64,000 nt of DNA from Escherichia coli. GTDB lineage: Bacteria; Pseudomonadota; Gammaproteobacteria; Enterobacterales; Enterobacteriaceae. A program made the position numbers and the translations under genes. The notes beneath the pieces were generated by a model. That model had not been told where the DNA came from. It saw only the letters and a list, made by a program, of their open reading frames with translations, and did no database searches. This document shows positions 2,346 to 23,557 of the stretch, piece after piece. How positions within the stretch are numbered: the stretch's first letter is position 1; each line of letters opens with the position of its first letter. The DNA is taken from the NCBI RefSeq assembly GCF_029227855.1, contig NZ_CP074357.1; one strand, 5' to 3'.

Positions 2346-3165
2346 GGCACTGTTGCAAATAGTCGGTGGTGATAAACTTATCATCCCCTTTTGCTGATGG
2401 AGCTGCACATGAACCCATTCAAAGGCCGGCATTTTCAGCGTGACATCATTCTGTGGGCCGTACGCTGGTACTGCAAATACGGCATCAGTTACCGTGAGCT
2501 GCAGGAGATGCTGGCTGAACGCGGAGTGAATGTCGATCACTCCACGATTTACCGCTGGGTTCAGCGTTATGCGCCTGAAATGGAAAAACGGCTGCGCTGG
2601 TACTGGCGTAACCCTTCCGATCTTTGCCCGTGGCACATGGATGAAACCTACGTGAAGGTCAATGGCCGCTGGGCGTATCTGTACCGGGCCGTCGACAGCC
2701 GGGGCCGCACTGTCGATTTTTATCTCTCCTCCCGTCGTAACAGCAAAGCTGCATACCGGTTTCTGGGTAAAATCCTCAACAACGTGAAGAAGTGGCAGAT
2801 CCCGCGATTCATCAACACGGATAAAGCGCCCGCCTATGGTCGCGCGCTTGCTCTGCTCAAACGCGAAGGCCGGTGCCCGTCTGACGTTGAACACCGACAG
2901 ATTAAGTACCGGAACAACGTGATTGAATGCGATCATGGCAAACTGAAACGGATAATCGGCGCCACGCTGGGATTTAAATCCATGAAGACGGCTTACGCCA
3001 CCATCAAAGGTATTGAGGTGATGCGTGCACTACGCAAAGGCCAGGCCTCAGCATTTTATTATGGTGATCCCCTGGGCGAAATGCGCCTGGTAAGCAGAGT
3101 TTTTGAAATGTAAGGCCTTTGAATAAGACAAAAGGCTGCCTCATCGCTAACTTTGCAACAGTGCC
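2346..3165 (+). mobile_element. IS26 (820 bp, both 14-bp IRs present)
   Basis: GGCACTGTTGCAAA at 2346-2359 and TTTGCAACAGTGCC at 3152-3165; no 8-bp target duplication (flanks ctcgctct / ggattgaa). Confidence 0.97.
2409..3113 (+). CDS. tnp26: IS26 transposase Tnp26 (234 aa from MNPFKG; ORF track gives 240-aa form from 2391), G184 wild type
   Basis: [41 protein letters not shown].. Confidence 0.95.
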   Translation: MNPFKGRHFQRDIILWAVRWYCKYGISYRELQEMLAERGVNVDHSTIYRWVQRYAPEMEKRLRWYWRNPSDLCPWHMDETYVKVNGRWAYLYRAVDSRGRTVDFYLSSRRNSKAAYRFLGKILNNVKKWQIPRFINTDKAPAYGRALALLKREGRCPSDVEHRQIKYRNNVIECDHGKLKRIIGATLGFKSMKTAYATIKGIEVMRALRKGQASAFYYGDPLGEMRLVSRVFEM

Positions 3166-6718: not shown

Positions 6719-7500
6719 GGCACTGTTGCAAATAGTCGGTGGTGATAAACTTATCATCCCCTTTTGCTGATGGAGCTGCACATGAACCCATTCAAAGGCC
6801 GGCATTTTCAGCGTGACATCATTCTGTGGGCCGTACGCTGGTACTGCAAATACGGCATCAGTTACCGTGAGCTGCAGGAGATGCTGGCTGAACGCGGAGT
6901 GAATGTCGATCACTCCACGATTTACCGCTGGGTTCAGCGTTATGCGCCTGAAATGGAAAAACGGCTGCGCTGGTACTGGCGTAACCCTTCCGATCTTTGC
7001 CCGTGGCACATGGATGAAACCTACGTGAAGGTCAATGGCCGCTGGGCGTATCTGTACCGGGCCGTCGACAGCCGGGGCCGCACTGTCGATTTTTATCTCT
7101 CCTCCCGTCGTAACAGCAAAGCTGCATACCGGTTTCTGGGTAAAATCCTCAACAACGTGAAGAAGTGGCAGATCCCGCGATTCATCAACACGGATAAAGC
7201 GCCCGCCTATGGTCGCGCGCTTGCTCTGCTCAAACGCGAAGGCCGGTGCCCGTCTGACGTTGAACACCGACAGATTAAGTACCGGAACAACGTGATTGAA
7301 TGCGATCATGGCAAACTGAAACGGATAATCGGCGCCACGCTGGGATTTAAATCCATGAAGACGGCTTACGCCACCATCAAAGGTATTGAGGTGATGCGTG
7401 CACTACGCAAAGGCCAGGCCTCAGCATTTTATTATGGTGATCCCCTGGGCGAAATGCGCCTGGTAAGCAGAGTTTTTGAAATGTAAGGCCTTTGAATAAG
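6719..7500 (+). mobile_element. IS26 lacking the last 38 bp including the right IR
   Basis: Left IR at 6719; sequence matches IS26 up to ..CCTTTGAATAAG (7500) then diverges (gagagcatgaaaaacc..) instead of ACAAAAGGCTGCC..TTTGCAACAGTGCC. Confidence 0.85.
6782..7486 (+). CDS. tnp26: IS26 transposase Tnp26 (G184 wild type)
   Basis: Identical protein to the copy at 2409-3113. Confidence 0.95.
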   Translation: MNPFKGRHFQRDIILWAVRWYCKYGISYRELQEMLAERGVNVDHSTIYRWVQRYAPEMEKRLRWYWRNPSDLCPWHMDETYVKVNGRWAYLYRAVDSRGRTVDFYLSSRRNSKAAYRFLGKILNNVKKWQIPRFINTDKAPAYGRALALLKREGRCPSDVEHRQIKYRNNVIECDHGKLKRIIGATLGFKSMKTAYATIKGIEVMRALRKGQASAFYYGDPLGEMRLVSRVFEM

Positions 7501-10320: not shown

Positions 10321-10630
10321 CTCACGCTGCCCCAATATTTTTTATGCTCTCCCCTATCACCTCCACATTTTTGCAACAGTGCCTTATAAATGGCAGCCTT
10401 ATGTTTACTTGCCAAGATGGGCTACCATATGATGTTTTATACTGAGCAATATTAATATTATCTTTAATGGAAAAATTAAGCCCACTAAGTGACCCACTGC
10501 TATATGGCTCTATTGTGAAGACGCCTGAGGGTAAAAATTTATACATGGTTGTCCCTATGTCTATTATTGCAAGGTTGACAATATTATTCGTTTTATAAAT
10601 TTGAGCGTTTAAAATCACACATCAAAGCAA

Positions 10631-11287
10631 TTAGTCAGGATAAACAACAATACCCAGTGCTTCGAGAATCAGTTCTTGCTGCCAGGCTGCAATTTTGATA
10701 CCTGATGTATCGACTTTGCGGGGATCTAAACCGTCGAGTTCGGCGTGGCATAAATTGGCACCCTGTAGGCTAAATTGCCCCCAGACATCTTCGGAAAAAA
10801 CACCTCGACTTAAGTCTGACTCTTTCAGTGATGCACCCGCTAGGTTCGTTCCTATCCAGCGATTTTCAAACAACTCACATTTTTCTAAACAAACCCTCTC
10901 CATATTGGCATAGGAAAGATTACATCCAGAAATAAATGCTGAGCAAAAGTACATACGATTACTCACTTGATGGGCAAAGTTTGTTCGGGAAAAGTTGGCA
11001 CCTTTTAAATCACACGCACGGAACTCTATACCGTAGCAATTGGCATTACTGAAGTTTGCCATCGCAAGTTGGCATTGTTGGAAACTTGCATCACGAAGAT
11101 CTGCGACATCAAAGTGGCAGCCTTCGATATCACCCTGTTCAATGAACTTGCAGTTGACGAATGTCGTATCACGCAAGTTAGCACGTCGAAAGTCGCTGCG
11201 AATGAATGTGCAAGCGGTGAAGGTGAGATCACTTAAGTCTTTATGTGAAAAGTTGTGGTGCCGATATGTATGATTGTAGGTTTCCAT
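10631..11287 (-). CDS. qnrS1: quinolone resistance pentapeptide-repeat protein QnrS1
   Basis: 218-aa product METYNHTYRHHNFSHKDLSDLTFTACTFIRSDFRRANLRDTTFVNCKFIEQGDIEGCHF.. Confidence 0.95.
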   Translation of the reverse strand: METYNHTYRHHNFSHKDLSDLTFTACTFIRSDFRRANLRDTTFVNCKFIEQGDIEGCHFDVADLRDASFQQCQLAMANFSNANCYGIEFRACDLKGANFSRTNFAHQVSNRMYFCSAFISGCNLSYANMERVCLEKCELFENRWIGTNLAGASLKESDLSRGVFSEDVWGQFSLQGANLCHAELDGLDPRKVDTSGIKIAAWQQELILEALGIVVYPD

Positions 11288-11654
11288 GAGTACTCCTTGT
11301 TGAAAGGAGGGCTAGACTACCATTATACATATGCCAAGACATTAAAATAAAAGCCTGTTACATCAACACATTACAACCCCTCAATTTACCTGTTTTAAGT
11401 GGTCAAATTGGCGCGTAGAGCGCCTATCGCTCTTGCATTGGCACGCGGCCCTGTTGAAAAAAGTTATTCGCTTTAGATAGGGTTAGGAGAGCCGTGCTTC
11501 GCCGGTAAAAAATCGGACTATCCGACGCAGGGCGGACTCATCGGCGGAGAAGCAAACTTTGACTATATCTCCCTACACTTGGAAGAGGGCTAGACTGGCC
11601 CCATAGATCACCAGACACTTCGACTCTCTTAAAATAAGAGGTAGTCTTGGAACT

Positions 11655-12050
11655 ATGTTTAATACCAGTCAGAACGATAAGATGGTTGAAGTGTTATCAG
11701 GACCTGAGCGGCGTCGGCGTCGTACACCGCAGGAAAAAATTGCCATTATTCAGCAGACTATGGAGCCCGGTATGACCGTGTCTCATGTCGCGCGCCTGCA
11801 TGGCATCAATGCAAACCAGATATTCAAATGGCGCAAGCAATATTAAGACGGTTCACTGACGGCTGTTGCATCGGGCGAGGAAGTGGTGCCGGCCTCCGAA
11901 CTCGCTGCCGCCAATAAGCAAATTCGCGAACTCCAGCGCCTTCTGGGCAAAAAGACGATGGAAGCCGAGATACTCAAAGAGGCCGTGGAGTTCGGCCGGG
12001 CAAAAAAATGGATTGCGCATGCGCCCTCGTTGCCTGGGAACGACGAATAA
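11655..12050 (+). pseudogene. IS2-like orfA with in-frame TAA at codon 64
   Basis: [70 protein letters not shown].. ; stop at 11844-11846 where IS2 has Gln. Confidence 0.7.
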
Positions 12051-12163
12051 GCGACGTTTGCAGAAGTCTTGGCGTGTCGCGTGCGCAGTTGAGCATTCGG
12101 GTTCACCGGCCATCTGACTGACAGGATCGCAGACGGCAGCCCCGTTCTGACGATACCACCGTA

Positions 12164-12697
12164 TTGTCCCGGATAAACATGGCGGTGGCTGACCTGCCGA
12201 CGTATGGTTATCGCCGTGTGTGGGCGCTGCTGCGACGGGAGTCGGAGCGGGACGGCCTGCCTGTGGTTAATGCAAAGCGGGTGTATCGCATTATGAGAAC
12301 GCATAATCTGCTTCTTGAACGTAAACCCGCTGATCCTTGCCGTAAGCGGGCCCATAAGGGGCGCGTAGCAGTAGCGGAAAGTAACCGGCGCTGGTGCTCA
12401 GATGGCTTTGAGTTCCGCTGTGATAATGGCGAAAAGCTGCGGGTGACCTTCGCGCAGGACTGCTGCGACAGGGAGATCATTGACTGGGCAGCGAGCACCG
12501 GAGGCTATGACAAAGAAACGGTGCAGGATGTCATGCTGGGTGCGGTGGAAAAACGCTTCGGAAGGCAGTTGCCAACAGTGCCGGCGTTCGCCCGGTTGCT
12601 GGGACTGGAGCCTTGTACGACAGCAGTGCGAAGCCCGGAAAGCAATGGCATAGCAGAAAGCTTCGTGATGACGATAAAACGGGACTACATCAGCATC
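12164..12697 (+). pseudogene. IS2-like orfB (DDE integrase core) truncated at ..DYISI by Tn2; in-frame TGA upstream at 12116-12118
   Basis: ..[67 protein letters not shown] matches IS2 InsD from memory. Confidence 0.75.
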
Positions 12698-12739
12698 AGG
12701 ATTTTAGGGGTCTGACGCTCAGTGGAACGAAAACTCACG

Positions 12740-15536
12740 TTAAGCAACGTTTTCTGCCTCTGACGCCTCTTTTAATGGTCTCAGATGTCCTTTGGTCACC
12801 AGTTCTGCCAGCGTGAAGGAATAATGGCCGAGCATATTGATATGTCCGTGGCAAAGCGGGGAGAGGCGTGCGATATCTTCATCATTCAGTGTTTCACCCT
12901 GCGCCCGGAGATGATCCAGGGCTGCCTGCATATAAATAGTGTTCCATAACACGACGGCGTTAGTGACCAGCCCCAGTGTGCCCAGTTGATCTTCCTGACC
13001 GTCGGTATATCGTTTTCTTATCTCACCTTTTTGACCGTGACAGATGGCTCTGGCAACGGCATGGCGACTTTCTCCCCGATTAAGCTGGGTCAGAATGCGC
13101 CGGCGGTAATCTTCATCATCAATATAATTAAGCAGATACAGCGTTTTGTTGATGCGCCCCACTTCAATGATTGCCTGAGTCAGTCCGGAAGGACGTTCAC
13201 TTTTCAGCAATGAACGGACCAGCACTGAAACCTGTACTTTGCCCAGCTTCAGGGAGCCAGCGGTCCGGATCATTTCGTCCCACTGAAGGACTATTTTTCG
13301 GGGATCTGATTGCCCTCTGGCAATATCATTCAGCACGCCATAGTCGGCATCATGGTCCATTCGCCAGAAAACCGAAGCACCGGCATCAGCCAGGCGTGGA
13401 GAAAACTGGTATCCCAGCAGCCAGAAAAGGCCAAAGACAAGTTCGCTGGCACCTGCTGTATCGGTCATAATTTCGGTTGGATTCAGCCCGGTCTCCTGTT
13501 CCAGAAGACCTTCCAGCACAAAGATAGAGTCCCTCAGCGTCCCCGGTATAACGATGCCATGAAAGCCGGAATACTGATCGGACACAAAGTTGTACCAGGT
13601 GATCCCTCTGTTATTACCAAAGTATTTGCGGTTCGGTCCGGCATTGATTGTTCTGACTGGCGTAACAAAGCGCATTCCATCTGCAGATGCCACTTCTCCT
13701 CCACCCCATATCTGTGCCAGTGGCAGCGTTGCCTGAAAATCAACCAGTCTGGCATTAGCGCTGGTGATAGTTTCAGCCCGCAGATAGTTCGCTTTTGTCC
13801 AGTTCAGCCGGTGTCGGGTCAGTGCAGGAACATTTGATCTGATCAGTGGTTCCAGACCGATATTGCAGGCTTCAGCCATCAGCACGGCGCTGATGCTGAC
13901 GGGCAGATCATCAACTCTGGCACTGGCTTCACTAGCATGGAAAAACTCATCAGCAAATCCGGTATGGGCGTTAATTTCGAGCAGCAACTCCGTTAAATCC
14001 ACCGGAGGGAGTAGATCACTGATCATTTTGCTCAGTCGTTTCAGACTGTCCGGCTCATCAAGACTGGCGAGGGGAGAAATTGTCAACCGGGGCTTCGGGC
14101 CAGAAACATCGAGTTCGACAGCCTCATTTTCGCAAAGACGTGCAGCAACCTGTCTGTAACGACTATCAAGCTGATGACCCAGAGATTTTATTGCTTCCTG
14201 CGGGTCTGTCGGGTGCCCCAAAGAACGATAAACCTTAATCCGGTTTGCCTGCCAGTCAGCACCCTGTAGTAATCTTGCACGAGGATCTCCCCACCGGTTA
14301 CTGCCGGTAACGTAGACATCCCTCCGCCTCAGACTATCCTGCAGTTTACTGAGAAAGCAGAGCGTGTATCCCCTGCGGGTGATATGTTTTTCCTTGTTAA
14401 TCACCAGCCGTTTCCATGACCGACTGATAATTTCCGTTGGTGCGTCGTCAAAAAACTGCCGCCGTGAGCTGAACTCCCGGCTGAGGTAGTCACAGGCATT
14501 CAGAGTGGTAACCCCGGCAGGTGCGGATGAAAATTTAACGGTATTCAGCAGATGGGGCAGGAAACGACGAACGCGCCCGTACTGCTCCACCATTTCTTCA
14601 TGAAAATTATCGTCTGAGGGCCGGGCAATTTCACGGACAAGCGTGATGATTTCAGCCAGCTTTTGCCTTGGGATGTAGCTGAACACCTCAGCACGAATCG
14701 ATTCGTCCGGTGTTTCTTCTTTCAGCAGGTACGAACATGCGCTGGCGAGCGCCAATGCAGATTTATCCAGATCCTTCAGCGAGCGGAGCCGTTTTTTCTG
14801 CCCAATCTTTCTGGCGTCACGGATGATAACGGCCAGCATGGCGTCCAGAACGTCCAATGCATCATCCAGCGCCAGCGTTTCCCATGCAAGGACAAAGGCA
14901 ACCAGAACCGCCATCCTTTTCTGCGGTGACATCCTGGCAATATTGAACACCGAAGTCATACCAGCATAACGTGCGAGATTTTTCAGGCGCACAGCCGGGA
15001 GTGTACTCAGGTTTTCAGCATGCAGGCCAAAATCGTTCAGAGTTTTCCAGCGTTCAATTGCTTCATTAAACGCCGGACCACTGATGGTCACAGGGCCCTT
15101 TTTCAGTGATTCCAGTAAAGACAGGCGGCTGCAATCAGTTGGCCCCAGCAGCATCTCCAGCTGTGAACGCTGTTCGGCTGACGGTATCAGTGCCAGTTTG
15201 TTCCACAGGCGCAACGTCGCCTTTTCCCTTACCTCTGAAATCAACCGGGTCAGCGTAGTGGCTCCGGGGAGAATAATACGATGTTGCATAAGCCACCCTG
15301 TCGCCAGATCGAAAAGCAGGCCAGGACGTTCGTTGCTTATCCAGCTCCGGGTATATAAAAGACGGGTAAGGCGAAATGTCCAGGGCCAGGCAAATTCACG
15401 ATACTGATAGTGCTGACGTATCAGCGCTGCATGCTCACGGCGGGTATTTTCCCTCTGACCGTATTCTGCAAGAACGGTGATATCACGAATCCCGAGCTGT
15501 CTGGCGGTAAAATGCCGGACGCCGGAAGGAATATGA
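12740..15536 (-). pseudogene. tnpA: Tn2 tnpA, 3' portion (interrupted by ISEcp1 unit)
   Basis: Minus-strand frame encodes Tn3 TnpA from ..IPSGVRHFTAR.. to the C-terminus ..KEASEAENVA. Confidence 0.9.
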
Positions 15537-15548
15537 CCTGGGACCTAC

Positions 15549-15881
15549 GTGCGCCCGCACCGACACCCTCACACCTTCGAGCTACTGTTGCCATTAAGGG
15601 GTCGTTTCGTGGTGCTGAATTTTGACGATCGGGGTACCGTCACCCATCGGGCGATATTGGGGGAAACCTGTACGGTGCTGGAGATGGCCGCAGGAACCTG
15701 GCATGCCGTGCTGTCGCTGGATACCGGTGGCATAATTTTTGAAGTAAAACACGGTGGCTATCAACCCGTGGCTGCCGATGACTATGCGCACTGGGCTCCA
15801 GCGGAAGGAGAACCAGGAACCACGGAGCTTATGGCCTGGTATGCGCAAGCGCAGGTGGGCGACAGCACTTTTGCCGTCTAA
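15549..15881 (+). CDS. wbuC: cupin-fold WbuC (orf477), truncated form usually found downstream of blaCTX-M-15-like genes
   Basis: 110-aa ORF (GTG start) immediately downstream of and opposite to blaCTX-M. Confidence 0.7.
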   Translation: MRPHRHPHTFELLLPLRGRFVVLNFDDRGTVTHRAILGETCTVLEMAAGTWHAVLSLDTGGIIFEVKHGGYQPVAADDYAHWAPAEGEPGTTELMAWYAQAQVGDSTFAV

Positions 15882-15927
15882 GGCGATAAACAAAAACGGA
15901 ATGAGTTTCCCCATTCCGTTTCCGCTA

Positions 15928-18507
<2,580 letters not shown>

Positions 18508-18721
18508 TATGATTCATATCGGTGAGGAAGGTGCCCAGAAAACGGACACATCCAATTTGCAGGGCAATGCCCAGACGGTTGTGATCACCTCTGCTTTTTC
18601 CGATAAATTCCTTGTCTGCTTCATCAAGGTGAAAATATCGTGCCAGCTGAAGCTCATCCGGTTCACCGGTGAATCTGCCATAGCTTTCAGTCTGCTCAGT
18701 GGTCAGAAAGTCAACGGGCAT
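18508..18721 (-). pseudogene. tnpA: Tn2 tnpA, 5' portion (first ~71 codons)
   Basis: [71 protein letters not shown] then ISEcp1 IRL. Confidence 0.9.
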
Positions 18722-18782
18722 ATCGGCCTCCCTGCCTGACGGGCATTTAGTAACATTTTTCCAACCGTACGAAATGTTATAA

Positions 18783-19442
<660 letters not shown>

Positions 19443-19612
19443 TACGCCTATTTTTATAGGTTAATGTCATGATAATAATGGTTTCTTAGACGTCAGGTGG
19501 CACTTTTCGGGGAAATGTGCGCGGAACCCCTATTTGTTTATTTTTCTAAATACATTCAAATATGTATCCGCTCATGAGACAATAACCCTGGTAAATGCTT
19601 CAATAATATTGA

Positions 19613-20485
<873 letters not shown>

Positions 20486-20810
20486 CTGTCAGACCAAGTT
20501 TACTCATATATACTTTAGATTGATTTAAAACTTCATTTTTAATTTAAAAGGATCTAGGTGAAGATCCTTTTTGATAATCTCATGACCAAAATCCCTTAAC
20601 GTGAGTTTTCGTTCCACTGAGCGTCAGACCCCTGTTAAAAGCAGCTCACGGGGAACGCGTCAGTCCGGCTTCATAACGGGTCGGCTGGCAGCATCTGACT
20701 CAGCAAAAGACCGGGCGCTGTGAGCGGAAATATGGCCGGTTTTCGCCAGAACCCGGTTCCACGCAGAATTACACCTGCACTGAATATACCGCTTCTGGCG
20801 TCGATTTTTT

Positions 20811-20863
20811 CTGCTCCCCTGCAGCATGAGGCTCTGTAAGGCAGCCTGCTGCAAGGGGAGCAG
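20811..20863 (+). promoter_or_regulatory. long imperfect hairpin (16-17-bp stem) just upstream of the PBP gene
   Basis: CTGCTCCCCTGCAGCA ..20-nt loop.. TGCTGCAAGGGGAGCAG read directly; no following T-tract. Confidence 0.4.
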
Positions 20864-20875
20864 ACTCCAGCGAAA

Positions 20876-22624
20876 ATGATAAAAAACTCCGCGATGAAAA
20901 ATAAACAAAGTATTCGCCCGTCATCACCTGAGAAGGGATTCAGCAACGTCAGATATAATATTCTTCTTGCCGGTATCGCATTAATCTTTATCGTGCTGGT
21001 TGCCAGGCTCACCGGACTTCAGCTTTTTGACCACGCTGTCCTGGAAAATGCGGCTGACCGTCGATCCGTACGGACACTTGCACTGCCAGCACAGCGCGGA
21101 ACCCTGACCGATCGTTACGGCGTTGTTCTCGCCATGAGCGTGCCGGCACGTGACATCATTGCTGATCCAAAACGCATCGCTGCCGCTCATCCGGACTTCG
21201 CGGAAGCCAGATGGGCTTTTCTGGCCGACTTGCTGGATATCACGCCTGAGGAACTTCGCAGAACTATTCAAGATAATTCGGACAAGGAATTCCTGTTTCT
21301 GAAGAAAAAGTCGCCCCTGTCATTGTCCAGGGCCGTGTCACAGCTGCATCTGCCGGGCATAAGTCAGAAATACAATGAAAATCGCTACTATCCGCTGGGT
21401 GAGGCATCAGCCTCGCTCATTGGTGTGACCGGTGCCGAAAATAGAGGGCTGAGTGGTATTGAGCAGAGCTTTAACACCGTTCTGAGAAAGGACTTCGGGG
21501 TGAAAAAAATACGCAAAAACGCCAGGGGGGGCGTCATCAGCGTGATCCAGTATGACGCTCCGGAAACTGCACCGGCGATCAGGCTGAGTATTGACAGTGT
21601 GCTTCAGTATATTGTTTACAGCCGGTTAAGGGAGGGGGTCGAGCAACATCACGCCCAGTCAGGCGCTGCGGTGCTTGTCAGCGTAAACACCGGCGAAATT
21701 CTGGCTATGGCATCCTATCCGTCGTTTAATCCCAACCGTTTTTCCGGTGCCACTTCCGCTGAAATGCGTAACGTGGCGATTAATGACAGCTTTGAGCCGG
21801 GTTCAACGGTTAAACCCTTCGTCATTCTTGAAGGCCTGCGCCGCCATATTATCAGCAGCAGCACGCTTCTTGACACAAGGCCGTTCAGGGTTGACGGCCA
21901 TCTTATCCGGGACGTGGGATACTGGCCGGCGCTGACGCCGACCGGCATACTTCAGAAATCCAGTGATACCGGAGTTTCACATATTGCCCTGGCGATGCCT
22001 TCGGATGCGCTGGTAAAAACGTATTCATCCTTCGGGCTGGGAAAACCGACAGGGCTGGGCCTTCCCGGTGAAAGTACTGGTTACTTTCCGTTCAGTCGCC
22101 ATCGATGGGCTGATATTGAGCGCGCCACCTTCGCTTTTGGCTACGGCCTCCGGGTAACCCCGCTCCAGTTAGCCAGAGCCTATGCCACTCTCGGGGCCTG
22201 TGGCGTTTATCATCCGTTATCCGTTACACGGTTATCCGCGCCGGTGTACGGTGAGCAGGTGGCGGACCCGAAGCTTGCCGATGCTGTAATCAGAATGATG
22301 GAAAGTGATGTGTTACCCGGCGGAAGTGGCGTAAGGGCAGCTGTACCGGGCTACCGTCTGGCAATAAAAACCGGAACCGCAGAGAAGTTAGGTGCCGGTG
22401 GAAAATATGACGGGGGGCATATTACCTATACGGCAGGCGTCGCGCCGGCGAGCCGTCCTGAAGTGGCACTGGTTGTGGTTATTAACAATCCCAAAGCGGG
22501 ACAGCATTTTGGTGGCTCAGTGGCGGCGCCTGTCTTCGGCCAGATTATCGGTCCGGTGCTTACCCGGCTGAAGATTGCACCGGATGCTTTACGTGCTCCG
22601 GTGGTACACCGACAGTCCGGCTGA
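20876..22624 (+). CDS. class B penicillin-binding protein, FtsI/PBP3-like transpeptidase
   Basis: 582 aa, N-terminal TM helix, ..EPGSTVKPF.. (SXXK), ..LQKSSDTG.. (SSN position reads SSD), ..KTGTAE.. (KTG); aligns by eye to E. coli FtsI. Confidence 0.85.
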   Translation: MIKNSAMKNKQSIRPSSPEKGFSNVRYNILLAGIALIFIVLVARLTGLQLFDHAVLENAADRRSVRTLALPAQRGTLTDRYGVVLAMSVPARDIIADPKRIAAAHPDFAEARWAFLADLLDITPEELRRTIQDNSDKEFLFLKKKSPLSLSRAVSQLHLPGISQKYNENRYYPLGEASASLIGVTGAENRGLSGIEQSFNTVLRKDFGVKKIRKNARGGVISVIQYDAPETAPAIRLSIDSVLQYIVYSRLREGVEQHHAQSGAAVLVSVNTGEILAMASYPSFNPNRFSGATSAEMRNVAINDSFEPGSTVKPFVILEGLRRHIISSSTLLDTRPFRVDGHLIRDVGYWPALTPTGILQKSSDTGVSHIALAMPSDALVKTYSSFGLGKPTGLGLPGESTGYFPFSRHRWADIERATFAFGYGLRVTPLQLARAYATLGACGVYHPLSVTRLSAPVYGEQVADPKLADAVIRMMESDVLPGGSGVRAAVPGYRLAIKTGTAEKLGAGGKYDGGHITYTAGVAPASRPEVALVVVINNPKAGQHFGGSVAAPVFGQIIGPVLTRLKIAPDALRAPVVHRQSG

Positions 22625-22688
22625 ACAGAGCCTGTTTACTCATTATTTATCTATTATTACTTAACTTAATTTTAAAAAGGATATTAAT

Positions 22689-23546
22689 ATGAAAAAGATC
22701 CGCCTTATTATAATCTCTTTACTGGCTGGAATGTGTACTCCAGCATTATCTACACCAGTCAATGTTACTGATACAATACAAAGCACAGAAGACCATATCA
22801 AAGGTCGGGTTGGTTTTACTGAAATAGACTTTTTATCCGGGAAGGTTCTGAGTAGTCATCGCCGTGAAGAACGTTTTCCTATGATGAGCACATTCAAAGT
22901 TTTGTTATGTGGAGCAATATTAGTACGTGTTGATAAAGGGCTTGAACAACTTGAACGCCGAATTACCTATAATAAGCATGACCTGGACGACTATTCTCCA
23001 CTAACCAGTCAGCACATTGCAGATGGAATGACGGTTTCTGAGTTATGCAATGCTGCCATTACCACCAGTGATAACACTGCTGCAAATTTATTGCTATCAA
23101 CTATTGGCGGGCCGGAGGGATTAACTCATTTTCTGCGTAGCACTGGTGATAGTTATACAAGGCTTGATCGACACGAACCCAGCCTTAATGAGGCGAAGCC
23201 TGGCGATGAGCGTGATACCACCACTCCGGCAGCGATGGCTCAAACGCTACAAAAATTGTTAAACGAAAGTGTACTTACAGAAAAATCTCGAAAAAAATTA
23301 ATAAGCTGGATGCAGGAAGATAAAGTCGGCGGGCCTCTGTTCCGCTCTGTACTGCCAGCTGGCTGGATGATAGCGGATAAAACAGGAGCAGGTGATCACG
23401 GATCTCGGGGCATCGTTGCACTGTTGGGCCCCGGAGGCAAGCCATCTCGTATAGTAGTCCTGTATATTACAAATACTCATTCATCTATGAATGAACTCAA
23501 CGAGCATATTGCAGGGATCGGAGATTCAGTAATTAAGAACTGGTAA
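22689..23546 (+). CDS. blaLAP-2: class A beta-lactamase LAP (LAP-2 is the allele usually linked to qnrS1)
   Basis: 285 aa TEM-like: ..[17 protein letters not shown].., ..SDNTAANLL.., ..[12 protein letters not shown].., ..[12 protein letters not shown].. Confidence 0.8.
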
Positions 23547-23557
23547 TATATTTACAG

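Follow-up and report, generated by a model that had tools for sequence, protein, structure and literature searches.

The linkage of qnrS1, ISEcl2 and blaLAP is long known: Poirel et al. in 2007 reportedly named ISEcl2, an insertion sequence of the IS3 family, upstream of qnrS1 and linked to blaLAP. The element has been placed 303 bp upstream of qnrS1 (PMC9044524) and the name ISEcl2 has been applied to it (PMC5027574, PMC7319535), and other papers label the element beside qnrS1 and blaLAP-2 as ISEcl2, ΔISEcl2 or 'putative IS2'. Excerpts of two papers describe IncHI2 plasmids with the region considered here, and its left half appears there as a 'qnrS1-IS3-Tn3-orf-blaCTX-M-55' unit, carried by IncHI2 plasmids and by others (PMC8093823, PMC9396133). 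What is labelled 'IS3' in this unit corresponds to the left copy described below, whereas a second inverted fragment, the overlap and the inactivating lesions are without mention in these excerpts. pSal016 (NZ_CP069382) has a blaLAP-2-ΔISEcl2-IS26 junction in common with our sequence.

In this study, we analyzed a 64-kb stretch of an Escherichia coli contig (NZ_CP074357.1), hereafter the window, which carries two partial copies of this element in opposite orientation. Our preferred reading, to which we give a probability of about 85%, is that both fragments are pieces of ISEcl2, a defective insertion sequence of the IS2 group (IS3 family), that the complete form is a fixed spacer between qnrS1 and blaLAP-2, that its lesions were fixed before it spread, and that two separately eroded modules merged to give the present layout. 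The fragments are an ordinary, already described relic of resistance plasmids; added here are the deletion in the catalytic core, an intact sister of 95% identity, the presence of the lesions in all copies and a probable route of merger.

Two partial copies of ISEcl2

The left copy opens with TAGACTGGCCCC, which resembles the left end of IS2, and breaks off in the middle of orfB, and the right copy runs from the right end ...GGGTCAAATCCA at 23558 to 24674/24675, where it is cut by the IS26 terminal repeat GGCACTGTTGCAAA (Table 1). The initial annotation had described two truncated, inverted and overlapping copies that are identical in the overlap, which was borne out by our comparison: 11756-12698 is the reverse complement of 23732-24674 over 943 nt with 0 mismatches. 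A repeat search reported 946 nt; the 3 extra nucleotides (2/3 matching, 1 mismatch) represent a chance match to the IS26 end. A perfect inverted repeat of 943 nt cannot arise by chance. Joined together, both copies gave a composite element of 1,282 bp, whose two ends agree at 24/40 positions and whose only BLAST matches in the whole window were these two copies.

We assigned the composite to ISEcl2 on the basis of its position upstream of qnrS1 and of the naming in PMC5027574 and PMC7319535. Specifically, the composite is found upstream of qnrS1 in the window, with exactly 303 bp between its left end and the start codon, and it was identified as ISEcl2 because this is the published position. 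The annotation also stated that one copy abuts qnrS1 and the other blaLAP, and the distances agree with it (303 bp to the qnrS1 start, 11 bp to the blaLAP-2 stop); its statement that both genes are normally linked through a single IS holds as well, the complete 1,282-bp form being found between them in other plasmids. Known ISEcl2 and the window share this position beside qnrS1 and blaLAP-2, and the 1,282-bp form is 100% identical across plasmids; on this assignment by position and naming, the only differences are the truncations at nt 1108 (Tn2-type junction) and nt 166 (IS26).

The nearest classical element is IS2 (IS2A of E. coli K-12, 1,331 bp, insC/insD), with which the composite aligned end to end at 68.9% nucleotide identity. 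The two share IS2-type terminal inverted repeats (left TAGACTGG..., right ...AAATCCA in the IS2A alignment), the arrangement of orfA and orfB, an A-rich slippery site, the domain content and, before the deletion described below, the size. In contrast, identity reaches only this 68.9%, and IS2 is intact and mobile. After the A7 run, orfB continues in the -1 frame, a layout also seen in IS2 and in an intact relative from Salmonella. Conceptually repaired products matched the Pfam domains HTH_Tnp_1, HTH_21, rve and rve_3. In addition, the NCBIfam model transpos_IS3 was matched with 168.1 bits (cut-off 160); the best NCBIfam match was the IS2 TnpB subfamily, with 415 bits, below its cut-off of 597.

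Table 1. Features of the window related to the two ISEcl2 copies.
Feature	Position	Strand	Remarks
qnrS1	10631-11287	-	Start codon 303 bp from ISEcl2 left end
Left partial ISEcl2 copy	11591-12698	+	Element nt 1-1108 (left end, orfA, ~60% of orfB); 100% identical to complete copies in other plasmids/genomes
Left terminal inverted-repeat region	11591-11630	+	TAGACTGGCCCCATAGATCACCAGAC...; aligned to IS2 IRL
orfA remnant (HTH_Tnp_1)	11682-12050	+	Broken by TAA at 11844-11846, codon 55
Perfect inverted repeat, 943-nt arm	11756-12698		Partner arm 23732-24674; arms bracket 11,033 bp
A7 slippery run	12002-12008	+	orfA/orfB overlap; conserved -1 frameshift site; IS2 has A6G
8-bp filler	12699-12706	+	GGATTTTA; between ISEcl2 nt 1108 and Tn2-type IRL
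Tn2/Tn3-type blaTEM-1 transposon	12707-20632		38-bp IRs 12707-12744 and 20595-20632; tnpA split by ISEcp1-blaCTX-M-55-orf477
ISEcp1-blaCTX-M-55-orf477 (WbuC) transposition unit	15537-18507		Within Tn2-type tnpA
blaLAP-2	22689-23546	+	Stop codon 11 bp from ISEcl2 right end
Right partial ISEcl2 copy	23558-24674	-	Element nt 166-1282; TAA 24584-24586, TGA 24309-24311, deletion site 23851/23852, right end 23558
IS26	24675-25494		Cuts right ISEcl2 copy at element nt 165/166

Inactivating lesions and intact relatives

Three lesions were identified in ISEcl2, each present in both copies. First, codon 55 of orfA is TAA; the corresponding codon is CAG (Gln) in IS2A and GAA (Glu) in the nearest intact relatives. 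Second, orfB contains a TGA (12119-12121 on the plus strand in the left copy) at a position occupied by TGG (Trp) in IS2 and in all close relatives. The annotation had reported these codons as departures from the Gln and Trp of IS2, which is accurate with respect to IS2A, but the nearest intact relatives have Glu at the TAA position. Third, an in-frame deletion of 51 bp, which the annotation had not noticed, interrupts orfB (12578/12579 in the left copy). The deleted segment encodes ..ESLEWLTDNGSAYRAHETR.., and IS2 retains these 51 bp, encoding VEWLTDNGSCYRANETRQ. Four comparators keep them: IS2, the Salmonella relative, a remnant in CP089863 (91% identical) and, in a different plasmid context, a right-end fragment with 97.5% identity.

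The catalytic cores of IS3-family transposases and of retroviral-type integrases are characterized by a DD(35)E spacing. By this spacing, the Asp of TDNGS, which is encoded in the lost segment, is the second catalytic residue; counted on the Salmonella transposase P0001, the Glu of IAESF follows it 36 positions later. The deletion also shortens the D-to-E spacing. Consistent with loss of the second catalytic Asp, the Pfam rve match of ISEcl2 covers only profile positions 3-66 of 102, versus 3-102 in the Salmonella relative. Judged from its sequence, ISEcl2 cannot be expected to make a transposase, because of the TAA at codon 55, the TGA at the Trp codon and the 51-bp deletion: it has neither the uninterrupted orfA and orfAB frames nor the complete DD(35)E triad of a functional insertion sequence.

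A protein search with the repaired OrfB retrieved a 401-aa IS3-family transposase of Salmonella (P0001) with 90% identity, followed by relatives from Erwinia, Citrobacter and Pantoea at ~85%. The P0001 gene sits in a 1,333-bp element of Salmonella enterica that is 95.2% identical to ISEcl2 at the nucleotide level (LN890522.1 segment, 1437-2769). This sister shares an identical right end and the A7 site with ISEcl2, and differs from it in being intact, with GAA, TGG and the 51 bp all in place. It was found in several chromosomal contexts, and 2/4 inspected insertions showed clean 5-bp target duplications (AAATG/AAATG and GTTTG/GTTTG). The varied contexts and target duplications indicate that the sister is mobile; ISEcl2 therefore represents a decayed branch of a family that still moves elsewhere. 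The sister is named only 'IS3 family transposase' in the sources, and one of its insertions appears to interrupt proQ. The 91%-identical CP089863.1 relative (segment 2498-3070) is itself decayed: it carries in-frame TAG codons, has separately lost 11 bp in the SNGIAES region, and adjoins another IS2-like left end.

The lesions of ISEcl2 are not confined to the window. Many plasmids, and E. coli genomes too, carry complete 1,282-bp ISEcl2 with 100% identity. It was located between qnrS1 and blaLAP-2 in the canonical-module records examined, and PGAP marks it there as a pseudogene with the note 'IS3 family transposase; programmed frameshift; internal stop'. We further compared a 331-nt query in which both stops had been changed to sense codons with plasmid records. 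It matched 1,578 records, none of them at more than 99.4% identity (329/331); therefore both stops are present in every matching record and none of the 1,578 carries a repaired one. Judged by the annotation's own criterion, the stop codons are the natural sequence of every copy in the plasmid and genome records compared, and thus their sharing by the two fragments is not special to the window.

The surroundings of ISEcl2 are as constant as its lesions. Among the matches listed from 2,149 and 1,030 records, near-identical left ends all keep the qnrS1-side flank, near-identical right ends all keep the blaLAP-2 flank or are truncated, and no near-identical copy with new flanks was seen, so that the occurrence in different genomic contexts typical of a functional insertion sequence was not found among them. 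In addition, the 5-bp target-site duplication of the IS2 group of the IS3 family is absent at complete ISEcl2, whose flanks are AGGGC versus CTGTA. The same flanks, the lack of target duplication and the universal lesions together suggest that ISEcl2 has not moved by itself since it became fixed in this locus. The fragments differ in how far they are eroded: copies with a left end stop at nt 1108, 815, 724, 711, 250 or 149, and the right-end copy starts at nt 166.

Continued activity of ISEcl2, in which readthrough or recoding would overcome the stops and its own transposition would have produced the copies, would agree with the conserved A7 frameshift site and the conservation of both terminal repeats. 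We nevertheless regard it as extremely improbable: the 51-bp deletion takes out the second catalytic Asp, the constant flanks and missing target duplication just described speak against it, and each copy in the window is without one end. Moreover, TAA is not known to serve for recoding in enterobacteria. On our preferred reading, all three lesions would have been fixed before ISEcl2 spread, and the element would have travelled solely as a passenger on IS26, ISKpn19, Tn3-type elements and plasmids. The annotation had proposed that the element was inactivated before it was duplicated and moved passively. Inactivation first and passive movement are supported by the identical complete copies, the unrepaired stops, the internal stop in the PGAP annotation and the loss of the Asp, but 'duplicated' is better read as a merger of modules.

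Origin of the two-copy layout

The region is arranged in the order ISKpn19, qnrS1 (-), ISEcl2 nt 1-1108, the filler and the Tn2/Tn3-type IRL, continuing with the split tnpA, tnpR, blaTEM-1, IRR, a PBP gene and blaLAP-2 (+), and ending with ISEcl2 nt 1282 to 166 inverted, IS26 and aac(3)-IId. Two known modules account for it. On the left, 10351-15536 together with 18508-20634 is 100% identical to a pK91-type module of S. Typhi, the only difference being the ISEcp1 unit, which is bordered by a 5-bp target duplication: the sequence of pK91 segment 9045-9049 occurs in the window at 15532-15536 and again at 18508-12. On the right, 18727-24674 is identical to the canonical Tn2-PBP-blaLAP-2-ISEcl2 module and has exactly the same IRR-PBP junction. 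The two matches overlap within Tn2 at 18727-20632, and the flanks of Tn2 (TTTTA and TGTTA) form no target duplication. Both parental junctions are common, being found in at least 511 and at least 411 records, respectively. The combination is rarer, with 44 records for the 20-kb arrangement and 63 for the blaLAP-2-ΔISEcl2-IS26 junction; most of them are IncHI2 plasmids from Salmonella and E. coli.

These matches suggest that a pK91-type qnrS1-ΔISEcl2-Tn2 module, cut at nt 1108 beside the Tn2-type IRL, and a canonical module, cut at nt 166 by IS26, were eroded separately. Homologous recombination in the shared Tn2 would have joined them in a first step; in a second, insertion of IS26 with an adjacent deletion would have removed ISEcl2 nt 1-165 and a second qnrS1. 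Merger followed by truncation by IS26 looks like the simplest route. The shared Tn2 stretch is identical in both parents and holds no distinguishing SNPs by which the crossover could be placed, and the predicted intermediate with two inverted copies of qnrS1 was not found. Two further points count against this explanation. The absence of a target duplication at complete ISEcl2 leaves its placement between qnrS1 and blaLAP-2 unexplained, and so is the 8-bp filler. The filler matches neither ISEcl2 nor Tn2, and the same 8 bp occurs in every pK91-type junction examined; no matching target duplication was found in the Tn2 flanks of pK91 and of canonical plasmids, and pKP58-3 is without Tn2 altogether.

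The layout could instead have arisen within one plasmid lineage by an in-situ inverted duplication of a single ISEcl2 segment, through template switching or mediated by IS26 or a Tn element, with no merger at all. The perfect identity of the overlap would be expected from such an event, and the middle of the region is indeed the canonical module inverted; however, all copies everywhere are identical, so identity of the overlap is uninformative on recent duplication, and the left junction with its filler occurs alone in the at least 511 records without blaLAP-2, including pK91. One round of replicative inversion within the plasmid, driven by Tn2 or IS26, was rejected, as it predicts an overlap of 5 or 8 bp, not of 943 bp, together with a second copy of the transposon. 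Duplication in situ is therefore an unlikely account of the layout. Even less can be said for an error of assembly by repeat collapse or chimeric joining. Repeats of ~1 kb can confuse short-read assemblies, and nothing more specific speaks for it; 44 complete plasmid records, independent of one another and spread over several genera, show the identical 20-kb arrangement, and the 63 records with the blaLAP-2-ΔISEcl2-IS26 junction weigh against it too, which makes its probability negligible.

Present role of the fragments

Each fragment in the window is without one end and the retained ends bracket no segment, so the fragments are presumably inert as insertion sequences. All that they provide today is a 943-bp inverted homology flanking 11 kb of DNA with blaCTX-M-55, blaTEM-1 and blaLAP-2. 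Such homology can drive rearrangement, and in one related plasmid a blaCTX-M-55 unit is tandemly duplicated at these repeats. This plasmid, pKP9650-1 (IncHI2; NZ_CP122390.1 95000-125000, segment 11030-24601), carries three direct ISEcl2 fragments, one of them cut at both ends (nt 166-1108) and flanked on either side by an identical IS26-blaCTX-M-55-ΔTn2 unit of ~6.1 kb. The tandem duplication would fit unequal crossing-over within the 943-bp overlap. pMTY18780-2 likewise shows tandem IS26-ISEcl2(166-1108)-ΔTn2 units.

The doubly cut nt 166-1108 fragment was present in only four records. The isomer expected from inversion, with complete ISEcl2 and a nt 166-1108 fragment beside Tn2, was not found among these four. 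pKP9650-1 and pMTY18780-2 were considered as flip isomers and rejected, being products of tandem duplication; another record with the doubly cut fragment (L017) was rejected as well, its context being an unrelated IncC one.

There is a slim chance that complete ISEcl2 might be moved non-autonomously, in trans, by the Salmonella sister, and RecA-dependent inversion between the 943-bp arms would regenerate a complete copy for this. Both terminal repeats are retained in complete ISEcl2, the right ends of the two elements are identical, and the left ends differ at 3 positions within the first 26 nt. If this were true, dead ISEcl2 would not be wholly inert in Salmonella strains that carry the sister.

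On our preferred reading, the 'IS3/ISEcl2' boxes drawn in maps of qnrS1, blaLAP-2 and blaCTX-M-55 would denote a dead relic that never moves by itself, and the spread of these genes would therefore be owed to IS26, ISKpn19, Tn3-type elements and plasmids. The truncation points, nt 1108 beside Tn2 and nt 166 beside IS26, are useful as lineage markers. Beyond such bookkeeping the finding means little.

The window as a whole is a typical resistance mosaic built by IS26, with arr-2, cmlA, aac(3)-IId and other genes. Seven copies of IS26 were located in its 64 kb (2346-3165, 6719-7500, 24675-25494, 29250-30069, 32850-33669, 56908-57727 and 58713-59532), and the copy at 6719 is missing its last 38 bp. 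A 14-bp IS26-like motif at 10370-10383 was rejected as an IS26 remnant, the match being to the terminal repeat only, without any IS26 body. Finally, at 10351 the window is without 468 bp between ISKpn19 and qnrS1 that are present in a comparator record (L003, 6634-7101).
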